Source of the DNA: Bugula neritina
Lineage: Eukaryota; Animalia; Bryozoa
Length of the DNA stretch: 64,000 nt
NCBI GenBank assembly: GCA_964035545.1
Contig: OZ037767.1
Span: 17,171,781 to 17,235,780 of the forward strand
Reading direction: 5' to 3'
Positions 13,601 through 58,700 of this stretch are shown in pieces. The translations under genes were made by a program, and so were the position numbers. How positions within the stretch are numbered: the stretch's first letter is position 1; the number at the start of each line of letters is the position of its first letter. The notes under the pieces are model-generated. The model made no database searches and was not told where the DNA came from. It was given only the letters and a program-made list of their open reading frames with translations.

Positions 13601-14407
13601 CCTAAGAAGTTCATGCCATACTCCGCAGGTAACGTATTATATATATTACTACTCCGCAGGTAAACTATTATATATATTACTACTCTGCAGGTAAACTCTC
13701 CTATATATTACTACTCCGCAGGTAAACTCTCCTATATATTACTACTCCGCAGGTAAACTCTCCTATATATTACTACTCCGCAGGTAAACTCTCCTATATA
13801 TTACTACTCCGCAGGTAAACTCTCCTATATATTACTACTCCGCAGGTAAACTCTCCTATATATTGCTACTCCGCAGGTAAACTCTCCTATATATTGCTAC
13901 TCCGCAGGTAAACTCTCCTATATATCTCTATTCAAGAGAACACGACTCTCTGTTTATGCTTAATAAAATACATCTTGATGCCACGCTGCCTCGAGTCAGC
14001 AGCCCAACTCTGTTTGTTATTCATGTCCTGTTCAAGTGCTGCCTCTTCTCTCTGACAGCGTGTCTCAAGACAGCTCAGCTGCCATCTCATGAATATTCAG
14101 CGTATACACTCCTGGGGGGTCGACAGCGTACACTCCTGGGGGGGTCGACAGCGTATACACTCCTGGGGGGGTCGACAGCGTACACTCCTGAGACACGTCA
14201 GCAAAACTCTGTCTGTGTGTTGCAGGTGTGAGGTCGTGTCTAGGTCAAACCGTCAGCCAGTGGCAGATCTTTCTCTTCCTCACTGCTATTCTGCAGAAGT
14301 TCAACATCAGCCTCTCCGGGGACGTCAAACCTGATGTCTACGGACTCATCAGATTTCCAGGAGAATTTAAAGTTTCCTTCAAACCCAGAGAGTCGTCTGC
14401 TCTTTAG
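7660..14407 (+). CDS. Cytochrome P450, CYP2 clan, 496 aa. Exons: 7660-7677, 8835-8961, 10861-11070, 11515-11664, 11865-12045, 12158-12345, 12691-12812, 13096-13252, 13473-13628, 14226-14407
   Basis: Phase-consistent GT-AG exons totalling 1491 nt. N-terminal anchor plus PPGPFPMPLIGN, KKYGEIF, DFIDHYL, EIKR (ExxR), FKPDRF (PERF) and the heme motif PYSAGVRSCLG. Exon 1 is the least certain. Confidence 0.92.
13615..13925 (+). repeat. 31-bp minisatellite (~10 units) made of the exon 9/intron 9 junction (CTACTCCGCAG|GTAAACTCTCCTATATATTA)
   Basis: Directly visible; the first unit contains the real donor site. Confidence 0.92.
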
Positions 14408-17400
14408 TCACATGACCTGAATGTATCACCAAGTGTACAGAGTTTACTATTAATATTATAAATATCTACAAGATAACTAATAGTTTAGGGATGTATTTAG
14501 TGATATAGTGTAATAATATAGTATATAATCTATATATATACATGTCATGGATTTATCATATCGTGTATCAACATAGTTGCATAATATGCTGTGTTGTTTT
14601 GTTAGTCAGTGAAATTATTTTTGTTATTAAAGAATAGAGACTTATTATTGTACTATTTTCTGTGATTTTTTCAACCAGCTGTATGTTATATTTATTACAT
14701 ACAATAATATAGCTGCGTTTATTCTAGCTATAATCATTGACGTGCGGGTCGTACTACACAACCTACTATAAAATAAGTCACGTGTTTATTGGTCAGGGTA
14801 GTCTATGTCAAGAACATTTTTCTGTTAACTTCGGAGAATTCAATGTTGTGTTATTTATTATTATTTATTCCTGCACTACTGTTTTACGAAAGTAACAATA
14901 AATCACTAATAAAATATAACTCAGTTGCCATATTTCAAACAGAATTCATTTGTCTATGGTTTATATCAGTAAAGGGGATAATCCTTGAATACAGCAATAC
15001 TATAGATTATAGAATATAGATAACAGAAATATGTGATGCCGTATGCTTGCAATCTAGTATCTAAATATATGTAACACTTGACCCACTGCAGGGCATACCT
15101 GTAACTCATACACCTTCAATTCTCTCCTCATGCGTTCACATGTCACATGCAGCTTTGTATTCTATGAAATTGAAAGAAAGGGATTTTTACTAAAGTGAAT
15201 GATCTATTTTTATTATGTATAGAGATAGCTTCGGCATAGCAGACTGCGCTTTAGTGATTCCTTTATGTTCATGTTTAAAATGTGGAAAGAAATTTGAGTA
15301 CATTTTGTATAGTGAATGATATGTGGGTTACATTGTATAATACAGACTTGAATATATCTAGGTCACGTGTTAACTCAGCTATAATATAGACTAGGTGCCG
15401 AGTTTAAGCTGTGGGACTGACAGTAACAAAGTATAGTCAGAAAGAGGCTAAGCAATCTCAGACCAAGAAGCTCTAATTTCAGGTAAATTTGTTACATCAC
15501 AAATGTTAAATAATTATAAGTAAAATAACACATTATATAAGCATGTACTTTTTGATTACTTTACTTCTATTTATACATAATACAGTAAAAACTGTTTATG
15601 TTTACAAGCACACTATAACTGTAAGCTTTATTACTATTACCATACAATGTTATTGTAGCATGATAAAAATACAAAAAATTGAAATATAAAATATAGAAAA
15701 ATGGTCAATTTTAAGAATATTTTCAAGCTACTCTACAAAGTGAGAGCATTGTACTAGGAAGCAAATTTAACCTTATTCTAAAAAATCTACTCAAATATTT
15801 ATTATATTCTATGTCTATGGTTTATAACACAAATTATATCAATATGTATGCATGTAACAGCTAACTATAATATGTACTGTAGACATATTATAGACAACTA
15901 TAGACATATTATAGACAACTATAGACATATTATAGACAACTATAATATGTACTGTAGACATATTATTTTATGTGTAGTATACAGAAAGGGTCTATAAACA
16001 TTTATTTATCTCTTTTTGTGATTTTCTCACACTCATTGTAAGGCAGCATGCATGAACTTGTGAGATGACAGCACATTGGCAATCCCCATGAGCTGCACAC
16101 ATTGTGTTCACACACTGACATGCTGTATATAATAGTCCCATGTTTTAACCTGCCAACATGTCTATATATAGAACAGCCCATGTAATAACTTTCCTATACA
16201 CTTACATCATAATGAATATAGATTACATAAGCAAATCAACTTGTCAGGCAAGTTGTGTCATGGTGAGGCTGGGGTCGTGAACCCCTACGCGGAAACAGAG
16301 TAGAACACAGTCTAAACTAGCTGAGATCTCGCATAAGTTTTTATAAACACTCCATGCAAAGTATATGAGACGGAAATGGTAGACATGAAAACAGCCTGTA
16401 TAAAGTAGAACATTGATCATTTCAGGTTAACTTTTAGTTTTGAAATGTTGAGGATGGCTATAAAAGCTTTATATGTATGCTTAGAAATCAAGCTTTACTA
16501 AAAAAAGCTTTTTACAACTTTGCTCACAGCTGATTGTATAATAGCAGCTTTCTTTTAGTAATTTTTCAACTATAACTTAAATTTTCACATCTTCTTATTT
16601 TATTTTTATTGTGTTATTTAAACTTTTGAACGCTATTCAACTTTTTACTGAACTCCTATGAATCACAAGTTTAGAAACACAATTTTCTATATCGCTGGTA
16701 TCTTTCTTTGTTTTACAATACCTTCTATAGTCTCTTTTCTGCTTAACTCAAACCCAAACTCCAAGTTTGTTAAACTCAATTACTATCCCAACTACTGCAT
16801 GCTGATTGGATGCTTCAAGGCAAGTATAACAGCCAATTTCTAATTGGTTGCAGTCTATAACTGCAAGAACCTCTCCATAGTGATTACCTATAGGGTCATT
16901 CTTGCAGATGGTTCAACATGTATAGTACACATGCCTTGACACCAGCATATTATTTCTGTCTTCCAAATTTAAAGCATATTACTGTTGCACTTATTAAATG
17001 GGTCTCATTAAATTACTCTAGAAGTTGTCTTCTTTCTACTTACCTTTGGAATCATCTTCTTTGTGAAAATGTAAAACCTGACATAATGCTTAGAAAAAGA
17101 AATGAATTAGAGTTTGAGCCCTAAACTCATTTCATTTATGCCTGAGTTACGAGTCTTTAAACTCGAAATTATTCAAGAGAACAACTCCTGTTGCCAATGG
17201 ATTGTAATAGTAGTATGCTTTGACAAGTGACATCACCATGCAAGTGCAACATCCACTCTTTTCATGTTCATCACATTAGACTCATTCAAAATGAACAATT
17301 GACTAAACAACAACAATATATCACAAGAATCAACTTAGTGTAGTATTGCTTTCTCAGAGGCTATGCTAAGATTACTCTTTCATTACTTCAGTGAAATTCT

Positions 17401-19280: not shown

Positions 19281-22200
19281 ATGGCAGGAAATGCAGACGA
19301 GGAAGCTAGCTCTGAGAAAATAGAACTGTATGAGGCCTACTGGATCCAGAATACCACCGCCCACGGGTGTTCCAGACTGGCAAATACTGCCAAGTTTCAG
19401 AGATTCGTCTGGGTTCTTGCCTTACTGAGTGAGTCTATGAGTGAGTCTATGAGTGAGTGTGTAACTGAGTGTGTAACTGAGTGTGTAACTGAGTGTGTAA
19501 CTGAGTGTGTAACTGAGTGTATAACTGAGTGTGTAACTGAGTGTGTAACTGAGTGTGTAACTGAGTGTGTAACTTGATTAAAATTGGTTTGCAAAACTTA
19601 TGCTTAGTGAACCTAATCAAGAGTTCAAGGTTTTTATACATTAATGGGTTTATATTTTGCTGCTGAAAGTTTTGCAGATTTTTACCAGTAAACCACCTGC
19701 TTTCACCTGTCACTTGTTCAATCTGTCAAAACAACTGACAGCAGGTGCTCTCTCTCCATAGTCTATATTCATAGTATAGGTTGATGACTTGCTAAGTAGT
19801 GCATCCACAGCAATGATTATGGAGTAACACACCAGTACTGTAGTACTTCCCGGTGTCATTTTATATAGAATAGCTGTATTTGATATAATTTTGCTTAAAC
19901 ACCAAGCTTTGCTTATAGTTTATACGGCACAATTGTACACACCCACTCAAAACTTAGACATCTATGTTGGGTTAAAATATAATATTTTGTTTTCCACTGC
20001 CACATACCTACTCTAGTTTATTATAAGTTTGTTTGTAAAATTCAATACAATTTGGTTCACATCACTGCGCCAGTAAAATTAGACAGCTAGAGATAGAAAT
20101 GACTTGAGGTTGGCCAAGCTCACACCTTGAGGTTAAAAAGCATTTATATAAACTGCATAATACAGTTTTACCTGCTGAATTACAACTTTTATAAGTTCAA
20201 TGATTTGTCTATCGATCTCAGTTATCACTCAGTGTTAGATGTTTATATTACATATAAATGTTTTTGTTTAAAACTTTAATTAATCTGCTGTAAAACATGC
20301 TGAATACCATGTTACAAGGTCAGTAAACCAAGTGTAACTATATACGTGTATGTTTGATGTACATTTAAATTGTACATTAAAAAGCAATTGTTTCATCGGA
20401 AAGAAAAAACTTCAAACTGTATTTATATTGTAGCTTGCTTTGTGTACGTCTCCATTGAGGTCTACAACAGCTTTGACTTCTACTATCAGTATCTCACCAC
20501 AACAGAGATCAATAAAATCAATAAGCCAGAGATTCCATTTCCTGCTGTAACCATCTGCAACTTCAACAGGTGAGAAACTCACCACTTGTGGTTCTTCATT
20601 GCATAATACCTTATTCATGCTTATACATGCTTATACCACCTTATTCATGTTTATACATGCTTATAATACTTTATCTATGCTTATATATGCTTATGTATGC
20701 TTATACCACCTCAATCATGTTTATAAACGATTATGCAACCTTATATATGCTTACACATACTTATACATGGTTACGATACCTTATACATTGCTATTCATGC
20801 TTATTTATGCCTATTCATGATTTTCAGCCTGTATCTACATTTATTGAGGGTTATTTATCTAATCATGAGTATATTTCGCTTTAAAGTACTTACACAAAAC
20901 GCAGGGTTTAAACAATTCCCAGTGGTTAAAAAACCATCGCTAATTTCAATGGAAGGTTTCGCTTTCCTATGGCAGGTTTCAGCAATTGCTGACAGCTCAA
21001 TAAGTTTTACACAGTATTAGCAGCAGAAGACATTATCAACGGTTTCTAACAAGAATGTCAAGAAAAACTTAAAGAGTTATTTCTGCTAGTAACACTAATT
21101 CTTCTAGCGTCATTTTTATACAAGTCTTCACCAGGGAAGGTACTAAAAATTGCGTCTAGTCTACATGTCATTACTATAAATAGCACCATTTGTTATAATT
21201 CAGTGAGTTATCCTTTTATGTTAAATTAAGTACAAAGTAAATGGCATACATGTAGGAGTTGTGAATATGCATACGTGTGATTCATATTGGGATACTGCAC
21301 TAAATAGCTGAAAGCACAACTTCCACACTGTTACAACAGTGTAGTGAAGTTTTGTGTTATAAATAGGAAATACATTATTATTGAGATTTTCTTCACAGTT
21401 GAGTTAAGAGTCATAGAGAGGTGAACCAATCAATAAGTGACACAACGAGTTGGTAATTATACACTTCGATACTCCATATTCTGTCCTCGAGGATTCCCAG
21501 AGGTGCTAATTTTGAGTGTAAACATGTTTGACTTTACATGCACTACGGACACACTTATGCATATTCATAAATATAATCTCGCTCGTCACACATCTGTAGA
21601 CGGAGTAAAGGGGATAAGCACCGGATGTGCTGTATTCATTAATATACTTATGATAACCTTAGCAAAGTTCTTACCAGTTTCAGTTTCAACACCCATGCGC
21701 TTTAAAACTGCACTAGTGGTAGTTAAACATGTTGTATTTTAGTTGGTTTATGGGCTATGTAATTAGTTGTTTTAGTGAATGAAGAAGCTACCACTATAAC
21801 GTTACACTTATTTTATATCATAAAGTTAATACTGTAGCATTACACTGACAATGTACCATAGAGTTGACACTGTAGCGCTACACTTGCATTGTGTGATAGG
21901 CTTAACACTATAGCATTACACTGATAGAGTTAATATTGTAGCATTACACTTCCTTTGTGTAAAAGAATTACTACTGCAGCAATGCACTTCCTTTGTGTGA
22001 TAGAGTTAACACTTTAGTGGTACACTTGTTCAGGTGGCGGAAGTCTCACTTGGATGAAGACACGGTGGAGCAGTTGAAGGGAATCGTTGCCCTCTACAGT
22101 TACGACTACGTCATCCCTGACCTTGACACCAACGAAGAGAATCTAGATGAAGTGCTTAGCAGTGAGTTACTCTCTCTTGCTATGTTCTTAGGCTATAACT

Positions 22201-25200
22201 AAGGCTATAAATACACCTTGACCTAGCACTGACCTTGAGACAGGCACACGCCCAGTATTGTTACTTTGCTGTGATATATTCTTGTTTACATCAAAGTTTA
22301 TGTTTATAGTAATAAGTTTAAAACATGCAAAATCTCGAAAAAGTTTTCGTTTTAATAATTCTAAGCCGAAAGCATACAAGAAGCTCTTGTGAGATATAAT
22401 ATAATATAGCATAGCACATAATATAATGCAATATATTATAATTTAGCATGGCATATAATATAATGCAATATAATATAATATAATGTAACATAATATAAAT
22501 AGAGTGAATGTAATGTAATGTTATATAATATATAATATAATAGAATGTAACATAATATAATATAATATAATATAACATATTATAATATAATATAATATAA
22601 TATGATATAATATGATATAATATAATAAAATATAATATAATATAATATAATATAATATAATATACCGTAAGAAAAGCGAAGTGTTACTCTCGCCTCGTGT
22701 TATCGCATACAGATATACTTCCAACTGCAAAACCGGTACGTGTGGAGACAACAACTACCACAGCCCCACCGGTAGAATGTGTCCTTCCACCCACACCTCT
22801 CGGCATCACGTATGAGGTCGAAAGTGAGTTGACCAATCAGAGCACAGTGCTAGTTGGCAGCACAATCAGATACGTCTGCACTGTGTCCTACATGGTGTTG
22901 AGGGACGGAGATGAGGTGCATATCTGTACAGAGAGCGGACAATTCCAGGGAAAAGTTCCGATGTGTGTAGACTGTGAGTATATTATAGAGTTTAGAGTAT
23001 GGGGGTATAATGTGCCACCCTTAGGTTATGTGTCGTACTACGGCCCTGAGTTTATTTGATATGTCGATATTTTATTCTTAAATCCAACTTCAGTTTAAAT
23101 TTCATTTTATAGATATTATATTTGCTATGTAATAGATAATGTACAATATAGGGAGCAGCCATACACTAGGGGTTAGAGCATTTGCCTAATAAACACAATT
23201 AGGTCATGGGTTCAAACCCCAACAAAAGCCGTTAAGGTGATGTTAGGAAGAGCATCCTGTCATCATTGCTTCTGTGCCTCATGTGAATAAGTCCTTAGGC
23301 TTATTTAACAAAAACCCTTTCCATCAGGGATTTTCTCACAGGGATAGTGACTATAAACTTGCGTGAGTTTTTGTTATATAATTGATATGTATAATAGTTG
23401 ACATTTGAAATATAGTGTACATAGTATATGTAATGTTATATATTGCAAATGAAACATATAATATATAAAAATATATTACAACATACAACTTATAACATAT
23501 AAAAATATATATTATATAAACTAGAGCTTTGAAATCCCGTATATATACCTAATTTCCTAGTTGAAGAGGCGGGGGAGCGATACACAATAGCCAATAACAA
23601 GTCAGATCCTGAGGCTATGGCTGTTTCCACCACTGTGGCTACAGAATACAACAGCCAGCCTCTCAGTGACATGACTCTGTGCTTCTGGATAAGGAGTAGT
23701 GCGGGCAGTACGCTGGGCACCGTAATCTCCTACGGGGTTGGGGGTAAGTTCACAGGCTATGAAGAGTTATGGAAGCATTTCCTGGCGTATGCTTCATGAG
23801 AGAGTTTCACTATTTGCTCACCATGTCAAACTCATGGGAAAGCGATTCTAAAACAACACTATGCACCCACTCTATGCATTCACATAATATACAATATGGC
23901 TGTATGATATTAGTTATTAGTGTTTGACTATAAGATTCTATATATATTATGTTATTTAAACTTTATACAGTAGGTGGTGTGTAACATGTGGGTTATGTGA
24001 CAATTATAATACAATACAATACAACAAAATGTAAGATTTGTAATACAATGCAGTGTAGTGTAGTGCAGTGTAGTGTAGTGTAGTGCAGTCCAGTGTTATG
24101 CAATGTAATATGTGTTTCATGTATTGTATTGTAGAGGGAGTGTAGTATAATATAATACAATGCATGTATTATTTCATAGTATTAAGTTTACTTGTAGTTA
24201 CTTTCTCTTTGCAGACGATTCGATTCTCTCAGTCATTCAAACTCCCCAGAAGCTCTCTTCAGTCTACGGTCTGAAATATAAACTCTTTGGTATAGAAGGT
24301 AGAGCTATTACACTGACTAGCTACGGTCAGTGGAACCCCTTTTGCCTGCATTACTCGACTGGAGATGCTGGATCTAAGGTACTAAGTCTTTCTTGTAGAC
24401 TGTGAACTGTTCACTTAAACTCTATCATACAAACTAGTATGTGTTAATTTAGTAGAGATGTCTTCTCTTCGTAGAGTTGTGCTTCTTTAGTGAAGTTGTT
24501 TTCTCTTGTTACACTCACACAAAACAAAGATTCTCCAAGTAGCTAATACTTACTGCTCTAAGTTGTAATAACTAAATTATATTCATTTTAAGGTGCTTCA
24601 ACTTGAGCATCCGTATATAATTTCTTTTTTTTCCTTCTGCACAAATTTGTTGTCTTTGTATGAAAGTTTTTACGCTTGAAGTTATCTTCTCTCTAAGCAT
24701 TGTGTTTTTTATTATTTGTGCTTAAAGTGTCTATTTTCGGCGCTGTCTTTACTTTCTAACTAATTTATACATTTCGTTTATAAGCAATGCTACCTTTTGC
24801 ACTACATTTCACCAGCTGTTGCATTTACTTTTATTGTAGCAGTATTTTATCTTTTGCTATATTGCCGTTATTTGCTCTGCAATTTTTACTTATTCAGTTC
24901 CAGGCATCTCTCCAGGTACTGTATATACAACGTATAGACTAGCGTCTTAACATTGTAAACTATATTAAGTTCTTGTCACCATGATGTCTACGTTCACTCA
25001 CATTCAACAACTAATCTGAGCTTTGTAGGCATCATTGTAATTATTAGTCAATAACATCTACTAAATTTCTGATTGCTTTCATATGAAAGTTGATATATAA
25101 TTGTTAGTTGCCTTCAGGTAGACTGGCCTAACAAATTAGCAGCAAAGGGATAGCTGTTAGTGTAGCTCTGTTGTAAAAGTACCTCCCCAAAACAAAACTC

Positions 25201-28200
25201 TTCATTGTTGTATGTTGCTAGCATCCGATCTAAGAATGACGCAGCTGTCTGTATAAGAAATGAGTGTATTTTCTTATCTCAGAGGATGAAACTGTGTGCA
25301 ACCTGTGGATTAATGTTTGTTTACAACAAAACATTTCTTATAAAGTTTAACGAGTTTCAACTATTGCACATATGATCAGATGAGGCTGTTTTTGAAAAGT
25401 GTCAATCAAAGAATTAATACCATTGTTTCAGTTTGAATATAAATATACATGGTGCTCTATTTCATTAGAACCCTAACAACAAAGTTGAGTTAAATCAGGC
25501 GAAACATCTATATGGAAATTTATTTACAGCTTTACAAGTTTCTTGTATTTGAAAACGGAGAAAATGGATTCCACCTTTACGGTGATGATGACATCAGAGG
25601 GACAAGTCATCAAGAGTTTCCTTTGGGTGGAAAGTTGGTGCTGCTCAACGAGTATGAGAATTATATCAACTTGAGAGGTAAATATTCGAGTACACATGTA
25701 TCGTTATTACAGGAAACTGTTTGGTTTATGTAACACTGAGTTCAGACAATAGTCCTTGTGGTGTAATGGTTAGTGCGCCTGCAGCGTGCAAGCTGGAGGT
25801 CTTGGGTTCGAATCTCAGGTGGGGCAAAAGTCTTACAGTTTAAAATTCAATTGTAATTTGCAAGAACTACTGTTTTTTCTTATTCTTTTTTTATTTGTCT
25901 TTCATTTGACCTTTTTCCTGATTGCTTATCCACAATAGGCTGTAACCACGGATATGTCATGTGAACAGAGTGTATAACCCTCCAAGCAGATTTTCAGAAT
26001 ATGACTTAAAAGTTATTTTGATTTTAGAGAATAGAGAGTTGAGTCAAGTCTCCTCAGGCGCTGAGGTAGCCAATGTGAACCTGTGGTCAAGAATTATTCC
26101 TATAGAAGTGATGGACAAGATGCTATGGTACGGGAACGTGTACACCATGCTCCCATCTACAATTGCCAAGCTGTATGGATCCCTGGACCATGAAATTGCT
26201 GTATATAACGTTTCTGGTAAGCAACATTCTTTTCAGTCATAGTGTAGTTTAGCTGCTTCAACCAAACATCAAATGAATTGATGATTCATGAACAGAAAGC
26301 GACTTTATTTTCTCCACCTTTTAAACCAAACAACTTGATGAGATTATGTAACTCAGCTGACTTCCTATTGTCTTACTCGTGTGTCAATATGATTTCAGTG
26401 AGTCAAACCTCAGCTGTGACAACTTTATACAATGGTAAGACAACCACTTTGTAGCAGATATAGTTTGTTCACATTAATGGAAGTTGTCATTTCTTTTTCT
26501 GTGCGAATTGTATTTAGAAGTTGCCTTCTTTGCTTTTAAAGCTTCAACTACTTACGTTTTTTAATACATGCATAGCTTTCCTTGTTATTATAGCTTTATA
26601 TATTTTAGCTTGTTATATGCTGCACATTATGAAACCACTAGAGCTGGCGTAAAAACTATAGCTATACATATTTTAAACACTCGGTGCTTTAAACATATTG
26701 CTTTAAAAACCTAACACGTGCTTTTTAGAGGGGTGAAGAGCAATCCACCCCTGAAAATCACAGTACTGCCTCAAACACAATGTTAACCATTTTTTGGGTT
26801 ACCTAGTAAGTAGAGTGTTCTATCTGTATAATTACTTATTGACTTACTAGTTCTATAATATAAATATATATATAATATAATACAATATTACAGTATATAA
26901 TGTTATAATATAGAGTAATGCATTATATTGTAATGATTATGATGAGATATTAAACACAGATTTAATATTTGAATATAGGAAGTGTACAGATTGGTGAGTA
27001 TAAGACTCTCTTTGTCACTCATTTGACAAATACATATGACCTTGACACTGGGATAGTTGAGTTACTTTAATATGATTGGTTCACAGAAAGGCGTATAATT
27101 CTCTAATTTCCACATAATTATATGGCTTATAAGCTAAGGTTCTTCTATTTCTATTAAAGCTTCAGTTTAAAACACCACATACTTACTTCACAAGCATTTC
27201 ACGTATTTTGGAGAAAATCTATCGTTTTCATTACTTTCCTTATAAAAGCTTTAAAAACAATTTCCTTGATTCATTTTTCATAAAATTTCCTGTAGCTTGT
27301 TAATTATCTATAATATTCAAAAATAAACAATGGGAATATAATTTCCCAATCTGCTTCTAAAACTTTCGCTGTCGATAAAATAGCCTCTGCTTCATTCATC
27401 TGTCTCTTTCTACACACTATACATCTGGCTAGTATATGGCTCAGGGGATCAAAGGCTATGTTAATACAACAACCTAAATTTGGTAGCAAGAGTACATGTC
27501 TGGTACAAAGCCCTCTCTTTCCCCATTGCAGCTTATTATTATTATATTATAGTTATATAGTGTGGCTACTGGCTATCATAAAATACTAGTATTTATTCTT
27601 CCTTGCGAATTACTAAATAACAATGTTACTATACACATTTACAGAAACTGGTGTGCTACGAGTGAGAAGAAATGAGCTTATCACATCGATCAGCTCTACC
27701 ACTTCTGTTACCGCGTCAACTGCTCCACACCTGAACACAACAGGTGGATCTGCACTAAACGCTACGGCCGACTTTGCAGTTACCAGTACACCCTACTTGG
27801 GCAATACTACATCTTACATGGGCAACAGCACTTACATGGGCAACACTACTACTGATTCTGTCAACGGTACTACTGACGCTGTCAATGGCACGGCTGACAC
27901 TGTAAACAGCACGATGAGCAGCTCCAACATCACCAATAGCAACGATACGTCAGCTGATAACACGACAACAACCACTGAGCAGACGCCATTCAACTACGCT
28001 GATTTCACGAGGACTGCTGGCTGGCAACTGGTGGATGAGAAGTCGGGACATGATGGAACGGAGCGAAAGACTTTACTCTCTTGTACGTACAGAGGAAGGA
28101 AATGTGACTCTAGGGTGAGAAGCTAAAGCTATAAGTGTATGATCATTTTGAAAAAGTAAATTTGCAGCATGCCAGAGATCTTTAGGCCTACTGTGATTTG

Positions 28201-31200
28201 GAGTATATACCTGAAAAATAATGATTTTATAACATTGAAAGTCGGGAAAACTATTTGTTACAAGGCTTTTAATTCATAGTAACTCATGCATAATGCTTAG
28301 TAACAGAGGCTAAGTAAAGGCAAGTGGAATTTCAATTTACTAGTTTGCAGTGCTAAGCTTTACCAGATAGCATAACTCTGTTGCCTTGTCTGTAGCCCAT
28401 GTCTTCATTGTAGTGGTTCACCCACAGATAGTATAACTCTGTTGCCTTGTCTGTAGCCCATGTCTTCATTGTAGTGGTTCACCCACAGATTTGGAGCTTA
28501 TGGCAACTGTTATACTTTCAATCAAGACATACCTGAATCTTTAGCTAAAGAGGAAGGATTCTCCTTGCCAATAATACAGGATAATGCTGGACCAACCGGG
28601 GGTCTGAATATGCTACTTGACGTACAAACCGTAAGTCTAACTTGTACAAACTGTAAGTCTAACTTGTACAAGCTGTAAGTTCAAGTCCACGACTTGACAC
28701 ACTTAAATTACCTTAATGTATTGGCTATACTTAGTAAAGTGTTTTACTCTTAGACTTTCTACTTTGTTCTAATCTAGATTTTACTATATTATACCTCTGC
28801 ATGTAAACAAAATTGGTTTGAGAAGTTGAAATGAAAAGAAGTAACATGAATAGCTTAAAGATTGAATGTTGATAATTTTTCTGTGCCCTTTTATACTTAT
28901 ATATTACTATTATAATATTAATTTTATTATAATATTATTAACAAGTAATAATATGTCTTTATATTTACACCATGTGTTTTTTCATAACGTAAACTTCTTG
29001 CATTTTATTGTTTAGTTTGAGTACGCGGAAAGTACTGTCCTCAATGGGAACAGTGAACTAGGGCTAAAGTTTATTATTCACGCTCCATATGAGGTTCCAG
29101 TCATCAATTCCATGGGGTATGCCGTTGGCCCAGGACAGAAAGCTTTTGTCGGCTTTGATAAAACTATTGTAAGTTGTTTAACCTCTGTGTGCACAATCAC
29201 ACTGCATAATTTTATTACCTCGGACTCCATATTGAAATATTATTGAGCAGCTCTGCTCAAATCTCCATAAGTTTCTATGGTATCGTGCTTCTTCAGACTT
29301 TTTACAATAGTAGTAATATAAAAGTACTAGAATTTTCTAATTGCTGTAAAACTGCTACGGATGTTGCACTCATTGTTATAGCTCAACAACTTAGAAGAAC
29401 CGTGGGGGCGCTGTAAAAATAAGAGACTTAAATATTTTGAGAAATACACAGAGAGTAGCTGCGCATTGGAATGTAAGCTAGATAGAGTTGTGTCCTCCTG
29501 CCTCTGCAAGCCCTATTACTATCCCGGGGATTTTGACATTTGTACTTTTGACCAGCTGTATCAGTGTGCCTATCACGAGATTGGTAAAATTCTTGTCAAC
29601 GTGCCGTTGAATCGTTGTGTCTATTATTTATCTCCCCCCCTTGTGAACTCTATAGGCACCCCCAATCCTTAATATGTTGATTTTATCCCTGATTGATAGC
29701 TTATAAAATTATTACCTTTTTGTTTTCCTGTAAACACAAAACTCAAAGTAGAATCGTGCAGCAATAACGGTTAGGATTTCTCAGTCTACAGGGACGCTGT
29801 GGTCTGCTCCCTCAACCAAGAGTAGATTGCCTGAGTTCTCATGTTTGATGTTGTCACCAGGTGTCGAACTTAGAGAAGCCGTGGGGGAAGTGCAATGAGA
29901 GCAGACAGCTGATATACAACCTGAACTACACGTTAGAGGGATGTGCTGTTGAATGCCGTCTCGAGAAAGTAGTAGCAGCCTGCGGCTGTAAACCGTACTA
30001 CTATCCCGGAGACTTTGATATCTGTTCGCTAGATCAGCTAGAAAAGTGTGCATTCATTGAAATTGGTAAAGTGTTCTTTATTGTCTCTGCTCAAGGCACA
30101 TTATGAAACTTTGAACAGTAGTATTCAATTAATGAAAAAAGTGTTATTGAAACATTTGGCACTATATTAGTACCAGTTATAATAGAAACAATCTTTTAAA
30201 TAAAACAAATTAGTAAGTTTGGGTAGACACAAACAGTAACAATAATAATGAATGGTGATACTTCATAACCAATTAACATTTCGCGGATATTTATTTGTGG
30301 ATCTTCAGACCAGCAGACATACAACTCAGGCTAAATTGAGATTTAGCAAACCAAGTTGTTATTTATTTTATGTGTGAAAAAAAATTAAGATCCTCAACCT
30401 GATTCTATTTGTTAATACTGATGATTCCAACCCTCAGATTCTTCCACGAGTTACATTAAATGTTTATTTGTATCCTTCTTTCAGTTTATTTGCAGGCGTG
30501 ATGATTTTTTTTATTTTGACAGTTGTAAAAAGTAAATGGATTTTTAAAACCTTGTGAAAACTGCATTTGACTATTTTGCAGATGTGATACTATTGATCCA
30601 AAAACATAATTTTTGAGTCAAGACTCATTATTGTGCAGCAACATTCCGTTGCTGTTTGATACAATATTCTTTTGTGTTATAGCAAAGGTCAACGCTGACT
30701 TCAGTGAGCTGTGTGACTGTCCTATAGCGTGTATGTCTGAGGATTATGACGTGAAGCTGTCCTACACGACATTTCCGAACAGACCTTACGGCTTCCAGCT
30801 GGGGGAGGACCTCAACATAACTCTACCGAGATTTACTCCCGGCACAGTTGCATATGAGAACACCTATCAGTACATCAAGTATGGTTTACTTTCTTCAACA
30901 GACAGTCTCTTGCTAAAGCCCTGCTTTTATTATTAGAGTTTATTGCTCTTGAAATCTTTAATCTTAGAAGAGCTATGTTTGTTATACCAGCTGTGTTTAT
31001 TGGCAACAGTGCTTGTATATTTGAGATGTGCTGAAATTGTTACAGAGGGAATGTTATAAACCTGGACATGTATTTTGAGAAAATGTTGGAGACTGAAATG
31101 AAGCAGAATAAAGCAATGGACATCACGGCTCTACTTGGTAAGTGTTTCTGTCTGCTGTAGGTAAGTCTCTAGTATAGGTTATAGACTATCCTGTATTTTG

Positions 31201-31700
31201 CTGTAGCCTATGTTGGTTCCCTTATATATAATCTTCATGCTGGTTGAATTCATGCAAAAAGGATTAGTTTTTCTCGCATTACAAAGGCGTCAGGTGGCAG
31301 AAAACGTAGTTCCCTAATGATTGAATTGAACAGAACCATTGAATTAGTTGCAACAGCTGTATGTGTGCTGCAAGCACACGGCTTGATTAAGGTTAGCATA
31401 CTGTATTGATAGAGTTTTATCTATTGTGCAGGTAGTGTTGGCGGACAGCTTGGGCTATTCATAGGGTGCTCCTTCCTCACAGCCTTTGAGTTCCTTGAGT
31501 GTATAGTGATGAGTACTCTGTACCACTGCAAGAGGAGACGACTAGCAAAGGCTCGTAAAAAGAAGAGAGAACAAGCCGCAGCTCACCAACTCGAGTACGG
31601 CCTTTACACTCCCAGATACAGCTCTGAGTTGAACAAAAACAATAGTAACAACAATGGCGGATTGTCTGCGGCCATTTCACAGCAACCTTTAGTGTGGTGA
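19281..31700 (+). CDS. DEG/ENaC (ASIC-like) channel subunit with sushi, pentraxin and mucin-like insert, 964/965 aa. Exons: 19281-19428, 20434-20569, 22034-22161, 22713-22973, 23561-23743, 24215-24378, 25530-25677, 26028-26216, 27645-28114, 28475-28630, 29016-29168, [29382-29583 OR 29861-30065], 30683-30878, 31046-31137, 31432-31700
   Basis: TTAHG pre-TM1 motif, TM1, PFPAVTICNFN, YGNCYTFN, Cys-rich thumb, CDCPIAC, and TM2 ALLGSVGGQLGLFIGCSFLTAFEFLE. All junctions are GT-AG and phase-compatible (2895 or 2898 nt). Confidence 0.93.
19429..19575 (+). repeat. 12-bp minisatellite (GAGTGTGTAACT) starting at the first coding-exon donor
   Basis: Directly visible. Confidence 0.9.
23152..23371 (+). mobile_element. 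tRNA-derived SINE, family A (intronic copy)
   Basis: A-box/B-box-like head (GGGTTCAAACCC) and a body shared with 33181-33400 and 40109-40322, ending GACTATAAACTTG.GTGAGTTT. Confidence 0.85.
25751..25826 (+). repeat. tRNA-like dispersed repeat, family B
   Basis: TGGTGTAATGGTTAG (A box) and GGTTCGAATC (B box), poorly paired stems; 4 copies in the window. Confidence 0.75.
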
Positions 31701-36258: not shown

Positions 36259-39200
36259 ATGGCGTCCATGTTTAGCGGACCGCTGACTCTTACAGATCTA
36301 GATGACTTCATAGCTCCCTCTCAGGAATGCATTAAACCTGTAAAGGTAGACAGAGTGCCTGGCGCATTCAAGAAATCTGGAGTTATTAAAATCGGTAAGA
36401 TTTTGTCAGTTTATTCAGCAGCATATGACTCATACACACAGCGTGTCAGCTTGTAAGTGTGACTACTTCCTGTAGATGATGACGGCGCTTACTCGGCTCT
36501 CAATGATGTCGGAGAAAGTTACAAACTGGAGAAAGTGTCTATAACTCTCAACGACTGTCTGGCCTGTAGTGGCTGCATCACGTCAGCGGAGTCTGTCCTC
36601 ATCACCCAGCAAAGTCAGCATGAAGTACGTCTAGTGTATACTACAGTAATAGTATGTTCTGTCTAGTGTATACTACAGTAATAGTATGTTCTGTGTAGTG
36701 TATACTACAGTAATAGTATGTTCTGTCTAGTGTATACTACAGTAATAGTGTGTTCTGTCTAGTGTATACTACAATGGCAAAAGAGAAAGGTGTGGGAGGC
36801 GTGGCTAGTAGCCTATGTAGGTGTGGCTAGTTGTCAATAAGAAGTTATACCAACACTGACTTTGTTGTAAGCTGATATACATTTACTTTGTCTGGAAGGT
36901 GAACAGAGCGTTATCAGAGAACAAGACTTGTGACATAGAGAATAGAAAGTTGATGGTGATCAGCATATCTCCACAATCTAGAGCCTCTCTTGCAGCTAAA
37001 TATAGCCTGAGTGTAGAAGAGACTGCGGGGCGGTTCACCACTTACCTTCACAGTATCGGTATGTATCTTAGGTTTGTAGCTACGAGTATGTGTGATGATA
37101 CTGGCAGTAGAATCACAGCTAAGGGAAGTTTTCTCTAAAACCTGCATACATTGACCCCTAAGGCTAATTATTTAGGGTTTGACTTGGTCCTAGACACCAC
37201 TGTCAGTAGAGAACTTAGTCTACTGGAGACGTGCAAGGAGTTTATAAGCAGGAAAGAGAAATATGACAAGGGAGATAAATCTTCACTTCCTATGCTCACC
37301 GGGATATGCCCAGGTGCGTTGCGACTGCATTCTATTTGCTAGAGATCGTGTTATTAGTGTCCGCGCTGTAGACATCATGTTGTGTCGACAGGCTGGGTGT
37401 GCTATGCTGAGAAGAGTCACGGGGAATACATCCTTCCTTATATCAGCAGCGTGAAGTCACCTCAGCAGATGATGGGCAGCATAGTGAAGGTACAGTAAGC
37501 TTTCTCTATACACAGTATTACTATGTCGTCTGCTATACACAGTATTACTATGTCGTCTGCTATACACAGTATTACTATGTCGTCTGCTATACACAGTATT
37601 ACTATGTCGTCTGCTCTACACAGTATTACTATGTCGTCTGCTATACACAGTATTACTATGTCGTCTGCTATACACAGTATTACTATGTAGTCTGCTATAC
37701 ACAGTATTACTATGTAGTCTGCTACACACAGTATTACTATGTCGTCTGCTCTACACAGTATTACTATGTCGTTTGCTATACACAGTATTACTATGTCGTC
37801 TGCTATACACAGTATTACTATGTCGTCTGCTATACACAGTATTACTATGTCGTCTGCTATACACAGTATTACTATGTCGTCTGCTATACACAGTATTACT
37901 ATGTCGTCTGCTATACACAGTATTACTATGTCGTCTGCTATACACAGTATTACTATGTCGTCTGCTATACACAGTATTACTATGTCGTCTGCTATACACA
38001 GTATTACTATGTTGTCTGCTATACACAGTATTACTATGTCGTCTGCTATACACAGTATTACTATGTCGTCTGCTATACACAGTATTACTATGTCGTCTGC
38101 TATACACAGTATTACTATGTCGTCTGCTATACACAGTATTACTATGTAGTCTGCTATACACAGTATTACTATGTCGTCTGCTATACACAGTATTACTATG
38201 TCGTCTGCTATACACAGTATTACTATGTCGTCTGTTATACACAGTATTACTATGTCGTCTGCTATACACAGTATTACTATGTCGTCTGCTACACACAGTA
38301 TTACTATGTAGTCTGCTATACACAGTATTACTATGTCGTCTGTTATACACAGTATTACTATGTCGTCTGCTATACACAGTATTACTATGTCGTCTGCTAT
38401 ACACAGTATTACTATGTAGTCTGCTATACACAGTATTACTATGTCGTCTGCTATACACAGTATTACTATGTAGTCTGCTATACACAGTATTACTATGTCG
38501 TCTGCTATACACAGTATTACTATGTCGTCTGCTATACACAGTATTACTATGTCGTCTGTTATACACAGTATTACTATGTCGTCTGCTATACACAGTATTA
38601 CTATGTCGTCTGCTACACACAGTATTACTATGTAGTCTGCTATACACAGTATTACTATGTCGTCTGTTATACACAGTATTACTATGTCGTCTGCTATACA
38701 CAGTATTACTATGTCATCTGCTATACACAGTATTACTATGTCGTCTGCTATACACAGTATTACTATGTCGTCTGTTATACACAGTATTACTATGTCGTCT
38801 GCTATACACAGTATTACTATGTCGTCTGCTATACACAGTATTACTATGTCGTCTGCTATACACAGTATTACTATGTCGTCTGCTATACACAGTATTACTA
38901 TGTCGTCTGCTCTACACAGTATTACTATGTCGTCTCTACACACAGTATTACTATGTAGTCTGCTATACACAGTATTACTATGTCGTCTGTTATACACAGT
39001 ATTACTATGTCGTCTGCTATACACAGTATTACTATGTCGTCTGCTATACACAGTATTACTATGTCGTCTGCTATACACAGTATTACTATGTCGTCTGTTA
39101 TACACAGTATTACTATGTCGTCTGCTATACACAGTATTACTATGTCGTCTGCTATACACAGTATTACTATGTCGTCTGCTATACACAGTATTACTATGTA

Positions 39201-40776
39201 GTCTGCTATACACAGTATTACTATGTTGTCTGCTATACACAGTATTACTATGTAGTCTGCTATACACAGTATTACTATGTCGTCTGCTATACACAGTATT
39301 ACTATGTCGTCTGCTATACACAGTATTACTATGTCGTCTGTTATACACAGTATTACTATGTCGTCTGCTATACACAGTATTACTATGCCGTCTGCTATAC
39401 ACAGTATTACTATGTCGTCTGCTATACACAGTATTACTATGTCGTCTCTACACACAGTATTACTATGTAGTCTGCTATACACAGTATTACTATGTAGTCT
39501 GCTATACACAGTATTACTATGTCGTCTGCTATACACAGTATTACTATGTAGTCTGCTATACACAGTATTACTATGTCGTCTGCTATACACAGTATTACCA
39601 TGTAGTCTGCTATACACAGTAGTACTATGTCGTCTGCTATACACAGTATTGCTGTGTCGTCTGTAATCGTCTCACTATTCTTTCCAGAACTTTCTAGCAT
39701 CTCAGAAGTCGCTCCTGCCGAGCCAGATTTACCACGTCACCCTGATGCCGTGCTACGACAAGAAGCTGGAGGCGAGCAGGCCGGACTTCCACAGCAAAGA
39801 GTTTGACTCTCAGGATGTGGACTGCGTCATTACCGCTAGTGAAGTGATAGAAATGATTGAGAGGGAAGGCAGACAACTCCCAGACTATGAGATGAGTCCT
39901 CTGGATAGAATATTTGATGAAGTTCCTACACACGTGTACTCTCATTCTGGGGGTGGCTCAGGTACGTCCCGTAATGCTGTCTTGTCTCTGTATTACCATC
40001 TTTGTATATCTGATATTGTAGAGTATAGTATATACTATATATTACAATAGTTGTGTATAGTATAATATAGTGTACAGTATAAAATAGTATACAGTATAGT
40101 ATACACAAGGAAGCAGCCGTGGTTTAGGGGTTAGAGCGTTGACTTAGTAAACGCAAAGTCATGGGTTTGAACCCCAGTAAAGGCCATTGACGATGTTAGG
40201 AAAAGCATCCAGTCATAATTGCTCCTGTGTCACTTCTAAATAAGTCCTTAGCCTTATTTAACAAACCTTTTTATCCAGGGTTTCTCATAGGGATAGGGAC
40301 TATAAACTTGTGTGAGTTTTTTATATAGTGTAGTATATAGTTCAGTATATAGTATAGCATATAGTATAGTATATAGTATATAGTATAGCATATAGTATAG
40401 TATATAGTATATAGTATAGCATATAGTATAGTATATAGTATAGTATATAGTATAGTATATGGTATCTGAATTACAGGAGGATATCTGGAACATGTATTTC
40501 TACACGCTGCCCGAACCCTCTACAACATCCAGTCTCCCGAGATAGAGTACACGGTGAAGAGGAACAAGGACCTACAGGAAGTCACGCTCACCCTCGCGGG
40601 AGAGAAGAAACTCAAGTTTGCTCTGGCTTACGGCTTCCGGAATATTCAGAATATCGTCCCGAAGATAAAGCAGAGGAGATGTCCGTATGACTTCGTGGAG
40701 GTGATGGCCTGTCCGTCAGGTCAGTTTCCTAACTAGTAGTACTAATAGTAGTATCACTCTGTAGTAGTAGTAGTAC

Positions 40777-40853
<77 letters not shown>

Positions 40854-40948
40854 CTAGTGGCAGTAGTAGTAGTAGTAATAGTAATAGTAGTGGTACTAGT
40901 GGCAGTAGTAGTAGTAGTAATAGTAGTAGTAATAGTGGTACTAGTGGC

Positions 40949-40979
<31 letters not shown>

Positions 40980-40999
40980 ATAGTAGTGGTACTAGTGGC

Positions 41000-41033
<34 letters not shown>

Positions 41034-41604
41034 ATAGTAGTGGTACTAGTGGCAGTAGTAGTAGTAGTAGTAGTAGTAGTAGTCACTGTGTATAGTACTA
41101 CTAGTAGTCACTGTATATAATCGCACTAATAGTATCACCGTATGTAGTAGTACTAGTAGTATCACTATATGTAGTATTACTAATAGTAGTCACTGTATAT
41201 AGTACTACTACTACTATTACTAATAGTAGCAGTAGTAGTAGTAGTCACTGTGTATAGTACTACTAGTAGTCACTGTGTATAGTACTACTAGTAGTCACTG
41301 TGTATAATAGTACTAGTAGTATCACTATATGTACTACTACTACTACTACTAATAGTGACTGTATTATGCAGGATGTCTGAACGGAGGGGGACAAGTCAAG
41401 GTCACGGGGTCAGACGACAGTAAAGACTTATTGAATCGGGTCACTGACCTATATAACACTAGTGAATGTAGGTCACCTGAGGATAGTGTGGTAGCTCAAC
41501 GTCTGTACGATGAGTGGCTGAGTGCGGACAACTCCCACACCCTCCTCACTACTCAGTATCACGCAGTCGAGAAATCTACTAACGCATTGACTATAAAGTG
41601 GTGA
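36259..41604 (+). CDS. CIAO3: Cytosolic iron-sulfur assembly component 3 (NARFL/IOP1/Nar1), 476 aa. Exons: 36259-36394, 36476-36624, 36899-37058, 37176-37313, 37392-37489, 39688-39961, 40477-40719, 41372-41604
   Basis: [98 protein letters not shown]-terminal W. Exons sum to 1431 nt in frame. Confidence 0.97.
37507..39663 (+). repeat. 27-bp minisatellite (~80 units; TATACACAGTATTACTATGTCGTCTGC) filling CIAO3 intron 5
   Basis: Directly visible; produces the spurious repetitive ORFs at 37462-39700. Confidence 0.97.
40109..40322 (+). mobile_element. tRNA-derived SINE, family A (CIAO3 intron)
   Basis: Colinear with the other two copies. Confidence 0.85.
40733..41355 (+). repeat. Compound (TAG)n microsatellite in the last CIAO3 intron
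   Basis: Directly visible. Confidence 0.95.
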
Positions 41605-43817: not shown

Positions 43818-54489
<10,672 letters not shown>

Positions 54490-55747
54490 GTAGATCTGGT
54501 TATTTATGTTAATCAATAAGCCAAATTATCACATTGTTGGTTTACTACTAATACTGGTTCAAATTACCCTTTTTATGCAAAATTATATCAGAGTAGTTGT
54601 ATTTTTTTATTCATTTTTATACAATAAAATTTACTTTTTGTATATTCTAAACTTTAAATTTTGGTTTTGTTTGTTTTATGGCACTGCAGATAAAATTAGG
54701 ATGAAGGTTCAAAGAGTTGATAAACTTGTGATACCTATTGTATATTGGCTGAGTTATTGTGATTCATTGATTATATTGTATTGTGTTGAATATATTTTAT
54801 TGTATAGACTAGAATGTATTGTATACAATAGATTATGCTATAATGAACAAATTATATTTTATAGAACATTATATAACCCAGCTATTTCTATTCCTATACA
54901 TAATGCACGCAGAAAATTGCATGTGTTCAACTCCCAATGCTATGTTTTAGTTGAATAGTTTTCTTTTAACAAAAATAACATTTACTCAGAAATCTATAGC
55001 ATTTATTTGTTGAAAAGACCAAATTATTTTGCATTCATGAGTTACAACTTTAAATACAATTGTACCAGTAATAAATGAAGAATAACAGCTATATAACATG
55101 TTTATAGAAAGGATTTGCCCACGACTGTTTACCATGAGATGTGCTAACGACTGTAGCTTCTATTTCGCCTCACAGCTCATCTTCACCTGACATTATTGAT
55201 TTTATGACAACCAAATATTTAGTTACCCTAGCACACGAACAAACATAACTAAAGCAGTAGCAATTAATCAATAGATTGGCTATTATTTGTTGAACTGTTC
55301 TTTTGTCATCTTCTCTCTTTAACACGTAATAACAATTCCATGCCTGACAAGTGTCTTTTAGTGACAGTCCCGGGAGAGATTTGTCAGGATGTGATTCAGT
55401 AACTTCACGAAATCTCAGAGGTAAAGCATTGTCAGATTACCGACTATCTACAGAGGAACACATTGTACAGGTAATGTGCGTATTACATTATTAACTAACA
55501 CATTGTCATGTATTGTGATGCCATAGGAAACCATAAACGTTGGGTTCAATGTGCAAAGTGTGCCATGTCAGAAGCAGCACTTATCCTCAAGTGTTTGCTG
55601 ACAGCGTCTCTATTTAAACTCAAGATTTACTTTAACTGAAATCAATAATATTAGAAAAGTTTAGTCAATTAGCCAGCATTAATAAGGGCATTAGTTTAAT
55701 GTGACAACGACGACGAGGCTGAAACAACACTGAGGACACTTGAGAAA

Positions 55748-58700
55748 ATGACCCGTCGCGGGACTTTGTATCAGCAAATTCTAACAAAAAGACATCAAAT
55801 AGAAAACCCTAAACTGCTTGATGCAGAAAAAGAAAAAGATCGGCAAGCAAAGTTGCTGAAAGAGTTTGAGGATAATGTCAGTTTGATTCGAGCAGTAAAA
55901 TCAACAACACAACAGGATGTCCAAAGAGCTGCCACGCAGTCAGCTAAAACTGAGCCTCCTCAGAACTCCAGTATGAGTCATTATGGTGGATGTGACGTGA
56001 AGCTGTCATATCAAAGAAATATTTTTTTAGAGGACAACTGATGCTGGATTTCCAGTGGAAACTGAATTCATTATTATATTTGTTATTCATTAATTGTAAT
56101 TCTTTATGTTTATAACATTTTGTAACGCTAACTTTTAAACTTCTTTTGTTAAATATATTTGCTTATTTGGAATATATTATTGTTATGTAACTGTTTGGCA
56201 GCAATGGCGTTTCGCACCAGTAAGATATTCAAAGCTCTGGATAAACATGAAGCCTCAACTCCACAGACTGTGAGAGACGCACTGGCTGGGGGAGAAGATG
56301 CTGAAATGATTGACAGTTCTACAGGTAAATGCTGTCACTTTGCTCACCTGGACAGCTGTAGACTTTTACCATACGATGCAATCTTTATTTTAGGGTATCA
56401 GTTCAGCTATAAGATACTTGGTGTTCTGAACAGTTCCATCTATGTTCTGAGTTTGGGAAATCTTAAAACAAGAATGCTGGCGACAGCTAAACTGTCTTCA
56501 TAGTTTCTTATTATAAACTTAATCCTTTGTTTGAAACTTCCAGAAATTTAAAAATATTCTAACCAAGTTATGCAAGTCTGCAAATTTTTACGGATATTAC
56601 TTGACTGACATGACTTGACTTATATGACTTGAAATGTTGGGACTTGACTGAGATGTGACTTCACTCTGTGCTGGTTAAATACATTAAACATTGCGTGCTG
56701 CTGAAAAGCTTATATTATACAATCTCTATGAATAAAGTGTATCTAAGGAAAATAATATTATGTGAGCACTTTGATCATATATAATATTATATGATTTTAC
56801 ATTGTGAAAATATTTTGCTAGAGAATAAATGTCATGTAAATACTTCTTGCTGAGTTAAGAAGTTCTGTTAATCAACCCTATACATAGAAACTCCTGTGGT
56901 GCCGAAATCTCTACGACATATGAATAGAAATGTTCTATGAGCAGCTCAGAGTTGGGGTTCCAACCTAATTCCCCAGTTTCCAAACTTGGGACTCACAAAC
57001 TACTGCACTCATTCACCTCTAACTTGGAGCTGCTTATAGAAAGACTCATGAATGAGTGTGTATATTGTATAAGATGCAACTTAACCTGAGTTCTAACAGC
57101 TACCTCTTTGCGGGCAGGTCGAGGGTTTGTCCACAAAATAGTGGAGATGTTTGAAGCTCCAAGAGAAGATGAGTTTCTAGAATCCCAGATGATTCCCTCG
57201 ATGGTTAGCCTTGTATCCTCCGGTGCAAATATCAATTTGAGAGACACGGATGGGAACACCCCACTACATCTCGCTTTCATTCTAGACTCTGGGGCTAAAG
57301 TATGTCAAATAGAAAACTCAGTCTAAGGTTTGGTTTAAAAGCTGTGAATTGTTTTCATCTGCCCCAGTCTGACAATAGATTTGAGTCGCAAGCTCTTTGT
57401 TGTTGAAGGTAGTAAACACACTAGTCAAGTTGGGTGCAGACCTCACTATACTCAACGAGAGCAGCCAGAAAGTTGGAGACTTGATTGGCAAGACAACCGA
57501 CCCTCACATGGTGAAGGCTTTGGGTGAGTCAGCATATAGTATATTACATAATACTCAGGTAGCATATTACATAATACTCAGGTAGTATATTACATAATAC
57601 CCAGGTCTGATGGTACCTGGACTGTGGCATGCAATGGAGTCTGATGACAAGGAGAAAGTAAAGGCAATGCTAGAGTACTGGTGTAAAATAGACATCAGTG
57701 TTGATGGAGTGTCGCTAATAGAAAGAGCCAAAGAGAAAGGCAATACAGAGATCATTGAACTGTTGCAAGTGAGTAGAGTTATATCTTGTACATTCTTATA
57801 TACTGTGTGTTGTGTACCTGAACATGTACACTCTGTACCTACACATGTACACTCTGTACCTGAACATGTACACTCTGTACCTACACATGTACACTCTGTA
57901 CCTACACATATACACTCTGTACCTACACATGTAAACTTTGTACCTACACATGTACACTCTGTACCTACACATGTACACTCGACAGGATTATTGGCCCATG
58001 AACCAGCTGATTTATGCGGCTCTGGTACAAGACACAAAGAAAGTAAAAAAGATTCTAAAGAAAGAGAAGATAAACCTCGATATGAAAGACAACAGCGTGA
58101 TAGATGATGAGGGGTGTCAGGTGCAGCTGACTCTACTAGGTGAGCCAATCAGAGGGACTGTTACAAAACTGCAAATATTATTGTAGCCAACAGGGCTTTA
58201 GAATAAGAAGTAACATGTTCATCTTTGTACTAGTGACTTTTGCATGTGTGTTTAGGGTAGCATAACTCCAAGCTATATGGTGCTGTCATTTGAATAGGCA
58301 GCTAATAGGTCATCAACAGCTGTTTTACTCGTCTCTCTGCTGCTGCTGCTGACAGCATATTTTAGTGTCTCCAGTATTTCCTTTCATTCCAAGTGTTTTT
58401 CTAGCAAAGAGAAGACAACTTTAATATAAGCTACATGTGCGTTACCATAGCGACATACTAACAACCCTGGTAGTTTCGTCACAAATAAAACTATAATTGA
58501 TATAAAAGTACAGCTTGTGTATCTAGCTAGAAGCAGTTAAGGGTTATATATTATTGTATGGTAATGCTTTAGCATATGTAATTAGCTAGGATAGCTAGCT
58601 TTGCAATATTTTGTTTATTACGCATGTTTTCATATTTTGCTACACTTTGATATGCAATAGAATTTAAATAGTTTATTCTATAACATAATGCGGTTACAAT

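Follow-up and report, generated by a model that had tools for sequence, protein, structure and literature searches.

Channels of the DEG/ENaC superfamily usually diversify by duplication of whole genes. Tandem homologous exons, of which a transcript includes either one or the other, are enriched in ion channels according to excerpts of two papers (PMC9741552, PMC5740500), and the pairs of CACNA1C, of SCN (exon 5a/5b) and of Drosophila slo are adjacent homologous exons of the same phase and of near-equal length, that length not being a multiple of three. Within the superfamily itself, homologous duplicated exons are swapped in ASIC1a/1b and in ASIC2a/2b; an excerpt of PMC10507113 reports that the ASIC2a/2b swap alters proton gating, and the human ASIC1 and ASIC2 exon events are catalogued as N-terminal in all 12 places where the supplement of PMC8373072 names ASICs. 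The C. elegans gene del-6 likewise has either/or exons, numbered 5 and 6, in a degenerin-like channel (PMC4165533). We describe here a locus of this kind, found in the window (the whole stretch of DNA that was analysed, 64,000 nucleotides), whose exons A and B are tandem copies of the thumb exon of one DEG/ENaC gene. We think it likely that an old tandem duplication left two intact thumb exons, both under selection, and that the gene makes two full-length subunits by either/or splicing.

The exon pair and its reading frames

The pair, the intron between its members and the constant exons on either side are the following.

29016..29168, + strand: constant upstream exon E12, palm/beta-ball, ending in phase 0, 44 of 51 residues identical to Watersipora
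29382..29583, + strand: thumb exon copy A (E13A), 202 nt, phase 0-1, Pfam ASC E 8e-9
29584..29860, + strand: A/B intron, 277 nt, without similarity to the intron preceding A
29861..30065, + strand: thumb exon copy B (E13B), 205 nt, phase 0-1, Pfam ASC E 4e-11
30683..30878, + strand: constant downstream exon E14, starting in phase 1, with the three final cysteines of the thumb and the end of its helix a5

The gene encodes an ASC domain (Pfam PF00858), two transmembrane helices, a cysteine-rich thumb and what we take to be the HG motif and the G-x-S filter of DEG/ENaC channels, and both exons align to the ASIC thumb. The coordinates, lengths, AG/GT ends and translations of A and B proved to be as an earlier note on this DNA had given them, and so did the seven cysteines of each exon and the phases, phase 0 at the end of the upstream exon (29168) and phase 1 at the start of the downstream one (30683). 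The exon had been equated there with the thumb domain; it holds most of the thumb, but three further cysteines lie in the constant next exon.

Each of the two lengths (202 and 205 nt) is of the form 3n+1. Exon A is one residue shorter than B, and the length of B is that of the thumb exon of Watersipora and Bugula. In the 16-exon model (19281 to 31700), a transcript with A alone encodes 976 aa and a transcript with B alone 977 aa, while a transcript including both meets a stop at 29896, 455 nt ahead of the last junction, and a transcript including neither meets one at 30725, 243 nt ahead of it. This means that joint inclusion of A and B is unproductive through a frameshift, and that the frame is shifted by both or neither, as the earlier note had claimed; its description of a tandem duplicate whose either/or use is enforced by the frame is supported by this test and by the similarity of the exons. 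Neighbouring, of similar length, in the same frame, open, bounded by canonical splice sites and similar in sequence, A and B have the properties by which homologous mutually exclusive exons are recognised in PMC5740500.

Selection, age and splicing of the two copies

A and B have 39 of 67 residues identical. The shared residues had been said to use often different synonymous codons, and 23 of the 39 do; 10 of 13 four-fold sites differ. The comparison of rates, proposed along with the claim that both exons are under selection, upholds this claim, with a pS of 0.998 against a pN of 0.257 (bootstrap of pS-pN 0.52-0.99). We simulated neutral decay without indels, which is conservative: at 0.2 changes per site the frame, the seven cysteines and the splice sites survive in about 0.6% of 4000 runs, and at 0.3 changes per site the open reading frame, the seven cysteines and the AG/GT ends are intact in 5 of 4000 runs for A and in 0 of 4000 for B. 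Among 77 homologues, 18 columns are conserved in at least 60%, of which A matches 16 and B 17, and the differences between A and B concentrate at the variable columns (p 1e-6). All three variants seen in A and B in the public run X1 are silent (one in A, two in B; chance 0.04, transitions only, tiny counts), as are four of the five in the constant exon E14, again a small count. The identity to Watersipora is 42/67 for A, 38/68 for B and 43/65 for E14, and the identity to Bugula is 38/67, 44/68 and 38/65 respectively; each copy is thus conserved about as well as the constant exon E14. Judged by these comparisons, purifying selection is acting on both copies. Such selection on both of them makes either/or splicing of A and B probable.

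Selection signals integrate over the past, and one may suppose that both copies were long used and that one of them, more likely A, was recently silenced or reduced to a trace level, so that the gene now has essentially one thumb. A looks the more derived copy: it lacks one residue, has Leu in place of Gly at a column conserved at 62% and carries a +4 loop that is absent in the orthologues, and the annotations of the relatives have a single thumb exon. We nevertheless regard a recent silencing as unlikely, given that the present-day variants of both copies are silent, that A keeps 16 of the 18 conserved columns and is by identity the copy closer to Watersipora, and that the splice sites of A and B are intact, with equal donor scores.

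The identity between A and B is about 60%, against 56-66% for the Watersipora and Bugula orthologues. Since A and B are as distant from each other as from the orthologues, the duplication is old. As for its placement, the grouping of A with B in a 68-column tree has a support of just 39/71, and none of four alternative groupings was rejected by AU tests (p 0.14-0.35). A pairing of A with Watersipora and of B with Bugula was considered and given up, for it rests on 2 vs 1 vs 0 columns and is not established.

Docking and selector complementarity in the flanking introns, which the earlier note had proposed to look for, does not rise above shuffles: for five region pairs in this one genome, 13 to 36 of 40 shuffles were as good or better. 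The inverted repeats of the region are short and AT-rich only. Branch-point-like motifs occur near the 3' end of the A/B intron, 258-265 nt from the donor of A, and there is one weak motif at 47 nt; motifs like this last one also occur toward the 5' end in each of the two flanking introns. Steric hindrance was taken to need a branch point less than 50 nt from the upstream donor. Hence, with the 3'-proximal motifs lying 258-265 nt away, a steric block is not clearly indicated, though the weak motif lies at 47 nt. In human mutually exclusive clusters, as reported in PMC5740500, 60% contain non-3n exons and 9% show steric interference, and an excerpt of PMC4165533 reports weaker splice sites for the either/or exons of C. 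elegans. The splice sites of A and B had been called good; they are canonical, but by a crude consensus count each of the two donors agrees with the consensus at 5 of 9 positions, fewer than any other of the 16 donors of the gene. As these are the weakest donors of the 16, competition combined with nonsense-mediated decay likely controls the choice. The spliceosome would choose between two weak-donor exons, and the products including both or neither, which carry premature stops, would be cleared by nonsense-mediated decay.

Both unproductive forms being predicted decay targets, and no structure enforcing exclusivity having been found in the region, one could suppose that the pair is mainly an expression switch, in which regulated inclusion or skipping of both exons leads to decay and the productive isoforms are functionally near-equivalent; the fact that A and B differ at family-variable columns would agree with this. 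A switch of this kind seems to us very unlikely, for a single 3n+1 exon already provides a skip-to-decay switch, which leaves two constrained copies unexplained, and the differences in charge and in sequons cluster in one exposed loop.

The authenticity of the pair was examined with the run X1, in which a single contig of 1626 nt corresponds to 28461-30086 and covers E11, E12, A and B; it has 6 differences from the window, 0 gaps and no joint skipping either exon. Because it covers introns, X1 behaves as DNA, and because its contig differs from the window, it represents at least another haplotype; a relation to the source sample is possible. With the Watersipora protein as query, the thumb exon alone has two tblastn matches in the window and the other exons have one each. 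The similarity between the exons A and B has a z of 14.3, against 1.4 and 0.8 for the flanking introns, while the other duplicates in the window have 84-98% DNA identity and are mostly non-coding or copied with their flanks. The window does contain these other duplications, and a paralogue may exist, a 185-nt contig of X1 matching E11 with 17 differences, but with A and B only 58% identical in protein, saturated at silent sites, separated and flanked by unrelated introns, spanned by one X1 contig and alone in being doubled, it is hardly credible that merged haplotypes in the assembly produced the pair as an artefact, that it is a neutral copy of recent origin, or that it includes an exon of a paralogous gene. 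The artefact and the recent neutral copy were rejected on the grounds that the similarity of A and B is coding-only, in contrast with the 84-98% DNA identity of the other duplicates.

Several further observations were made in the window. At 28472-28557, the 185-nt contig of X1, with its 17 differences from E11, runs on into similar-looking coding sequence, which suggests a paralogous channel gene, belonging either to the same organism or to a co-sequenced one. A 61-nt tandem duplication (98%) at 28364-28490 copies the acceptor of E11; the first copy of this acceptor (AG 28412-28413) leads to an immediate stop and is a possible decoy acceptor, and the X1 contigs break at this repeat. Away from the channel gene, 2211-2745 (- strand) is a 94% identical inverted copy of 14208-14737 (+ strand), including the apparent last exon of a cytochrome P450 gene (about 10.8-14.4 kb), and is either a recent duplication of part of this gene or another P450, on the minus strand. 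About 2.2 kb of a 27-nt tandem repeat (37503-39664) lie just upstream of the exons of an Fe-hydrogenase-like gene (39667-41601), which we take to be probably of the NARF/CIAO3 type. One or more long ankyrin-repeat genes occupy 45238-63000 (+ strand), and a retrotransposon zf-RVT fragment occupies 2-640.

The thumb, the finger insert and the relatives of the channel

In a model of the Watersipora orthologue, which has the ASIC fold, a pLDDT above 90 across the thumb and a match to ASIC structures at E 1e-29, the thumb exon runs from the end of b9 through the b9-a4 loop, a4 and the a4-a5 loop into a5, most of which it includes, these names being, as we presume, those of the corresponding ASIC1 elements. 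The positions at which A and B differ are 11 of 22 in the b9-a4 loop, 9 of 17 in a4, 2 of 15 in the a4-a5 loop and 5 of 12 in a5. A had been described as basic, which is true of the b9-a4 loop only, where its net charge is +4 and that of B, Watersipora and Bugula is 0; the charge of the whole exon is -1 for A and -3 for B. The two sequons ascribed to B, and absent from A as the earlier note had said, are present (positions 736 and 746 of isoform B) and both lie in the b9-a4 loop. Sequons at these two places are found in 9 and 6 of 80 homologues; they are therefore tolerated and do not by themselves indicate a special function. The swap would keep the disulfide scaffold and the a4-a5 loop and change the b9-a4 loop, a4 and a5, so that with A the b9-a4 loop would be basic and unglycosylated, and with B neutral, with glycans possible at two sites.

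The earlier note had appealed to the acidic pocket of ASICs. In the channel of the window, the thumb places of the acidic-pocket aspartates D346/D350 (presumably chicken numbering, D347/D351 in human) read Y or F, and A. Only one of the five ASIC determinants given in PMC9949801 (H73, D78, K211, E411 and E416, in rat ASIC1a numbers) is kept, namely E411, the places of H73, D78, K211 and E416 reading T, N, N and T; moreover the pocket is conserved in chordate group A ASICs only (PMC9949801). The appeal to the pocket fails on these grounds, and a reading of the channel as a proton sensor is, from the residues, unsupported. Even without the ASIC residues, protons might gate the channel through other ones, as an excerpt of PMC10507113 describes for TadNaC2. 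According to an excerpt of PMC12469268, mambalgin, PcTx1 and MitTx bind to the thumb of ASIC1, which approaches the finger when the channel gates. With the ASIC proton residues missing, we infer that the swap would tune something other than proton sensing: the difference in the loop would act on ligand, toxin or partner binding, on gating or on trafficking.

The remaining exons of the gene are listed below. The 16-exon model was built from coordinates, and every exon except E9 is supported by tblastn of the Watersipora protein.

19281-19428, 20434-20569 and 22034-22161, + strand: E1-E3, N-terminus with HG motif, TM1, start of the finger
22713..22973, + strand: E4, Sushi (CCP) domain in the finger, PF00084 E 3.1e-5, 24.7 bits against a cut-off of 20.7
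23561-23743, 24215-24378, 25530-25677 and 26028-26216, + strand: E5-E8, pentraxin-like domain in the finger
26399..26434, + strand: E9, tentative 36-nt micro-exon, frame-neutral, 1/12 identity to Watersipora, without tblastn support
27645-28114, + strand: E10, furin-like R-X-R-R (about 27659-27670), Ser/Thr/Asn-rich stalk with many sequons, return to the channel core
28475-28630, + strand: E11, from tblastn and the gene model
31046-31137 and 31432-31700, + strand: E15 and E16, TM2 with GCS filter, C-terminus, stop at 31698

E4-E10 (22713-28114) form an insert of about 450 residues in the finger (about 500 in Watersipora), whereas the median anchor-to-anchor span of the finger is 95 among 107 homologues. 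The Sushi domain of E4 lies above the gathering score of PF00084, and the Watersipora copy, at 14.7, below it. The pentraxin-like region has no Pfam pentraxin match; its profile matches are NPTX2 (E 0.0017) and NPTX1 (E 0.0057), and the region in the Watersipora orthologue scores 0.96 to pentraxin clusters of the ESM Atlas, with 146 of 256 features shared. The model of the insert has low confidence (pLDDT 41), and its fold matches are all at E>0.05 (galectins, Gpr126). ENaC is activated by furin through the finger. The furin-like site R-X-K/R-R falls at the same aligned place in the window's channel and in that of Watersipora (shuffle chance 0.02-0.04), and such a site is also present in the finger span of 20 of 104 other homologues. 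The combination of Sushi and pentraxin in an insert is matched only by Watersipora among the 179 proteins compared. The Sushi domain, the pentraxin-like domain, the furin-like site and the Ser/Thr stalk were absent from the earlier note, and the finger insert is arguably more novel than the exon pair. Between E8 and E10 no convincing candidate for a second micro-exon was found. The isoforms of Watersipora (P0003/P0004/P0005) differ by segments of 9 and 21 residues just past the pentraxin-like domain, and the linker at the position of E9 may also be alternatively spliced. Nine other DEG/ENaC proteins of 930-1060 aa (P0095, P0101, P0103, P0106, P0115, P0141, P0146, P0152, P0171) have an ASC match which stops at about profile position 390 and resumes later, implying a large insert after the thumb that belongs to no Pfam family.

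The closest proteins are from Watersipora subatra (about 47%, full length) and Bugula neritina, both bryozoans. In a quick tree of 35 proteins chosen from 179, with no named vertebrate BASIC among them, Watersipora subatra XP_067941757-9, Bugula neritina KAF6040558/KAF6024813 and the gene of the window form one clade (SH-aLRT 100), which sits among Lingula, Antedon, Branchiostoma and other channels, apart from four sequences mostly with the wrist His. The nearest named sequences bear automatic labels, 'ASIC5-like' or 'ASIC1/2-like', and ASIC5 of the PDB scores below ASIC1/2 against the channel of the window.

One may imagine a bryozoan DEG/ENaC channel gated by a tethered Sushi-pentraxin sensor, carried on a furin-cleavable glycosylated stalk of the finger, in which conserved either/or thumbs would switch the coupling of the sensor, or of an outside peptide or toxin, to the gate, and one gene would yield two subunits of distinct pharmacology and as many as four types of trimer. 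We put this forward tentatively, as a rather doubtful extension.

Comparison with known systems

The Watersipora orthologue has the Sushi, pentraxin-like and furin-like features in common with the channel of the window, but just one thumb exon is annotated, common to its three RefSeq isoforms, which differ in small segments of the finger. The two Bugula models are C-terminal fragments labelled ASIC5 which do not cover the region of the insert; each is annotated with one thumb exon, which is B-like. The single annotated thumb exon of the relatives speaks against, or is silent on, conservation of the pair. Scans of metagenomes for the loci of relatives gave 200 and 49 pattern matches, with 0 relatives confirmed. 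Two thumb matches occur in 3 of 162 thumb-bearing proteins (P0135, P0058, P0035), protein records being unable to show either/or exons; as other cases of thumb duplication all three were discarded, P0135 and P0058 being unrelated look-alikes with two ASC stretches and P0035 a near-identical repeat of several exons instead of a single-thumb duplication. P0128 (six LDLa repeats) and P0097 (F5/8C and kringle) likewise have extracellular binding modules between the finger anchors, but the modules differ from those of the window, and the two proteins group together in a separate clade of the tree.

In the literature searched, most subscription papers lying outside its coverage, we found no internal either/or thumb exon in a DEG/ENaC channel (fly and worm catalogues may contain one) and no description of a DEG/ENaC channel with Sushi and pentraxin domains. 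The swap of an internal thumb amounts to a natural chimera experiment, with two thumbs on an otherwise identical channel. This makes the role of the thumb testable in an orphan non-ASIC channel whose finger bears a module of adhesion or lectin type.

The two exons of del-6 measure 28 and 165 nt and one of them bears a stop (PMC4165533), unlike the two full-length thumbs of the window. In ASIC1 and ASIC2 the swapped part is N-terminal and the thumb is shared, whereas here the swap is internal, in the thumb itself, and in a channel without the ASIC proton determinants. Compared with the pairs of CACNA1C, SCN and slo, A and B belong to a DEG/ENaC channel of a bryozoan-like genome and are known here from DNA alone. 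The splicing mechanism described here is thus ordinary; what is new is its place, in an orphan channel whose architecture is unusual.
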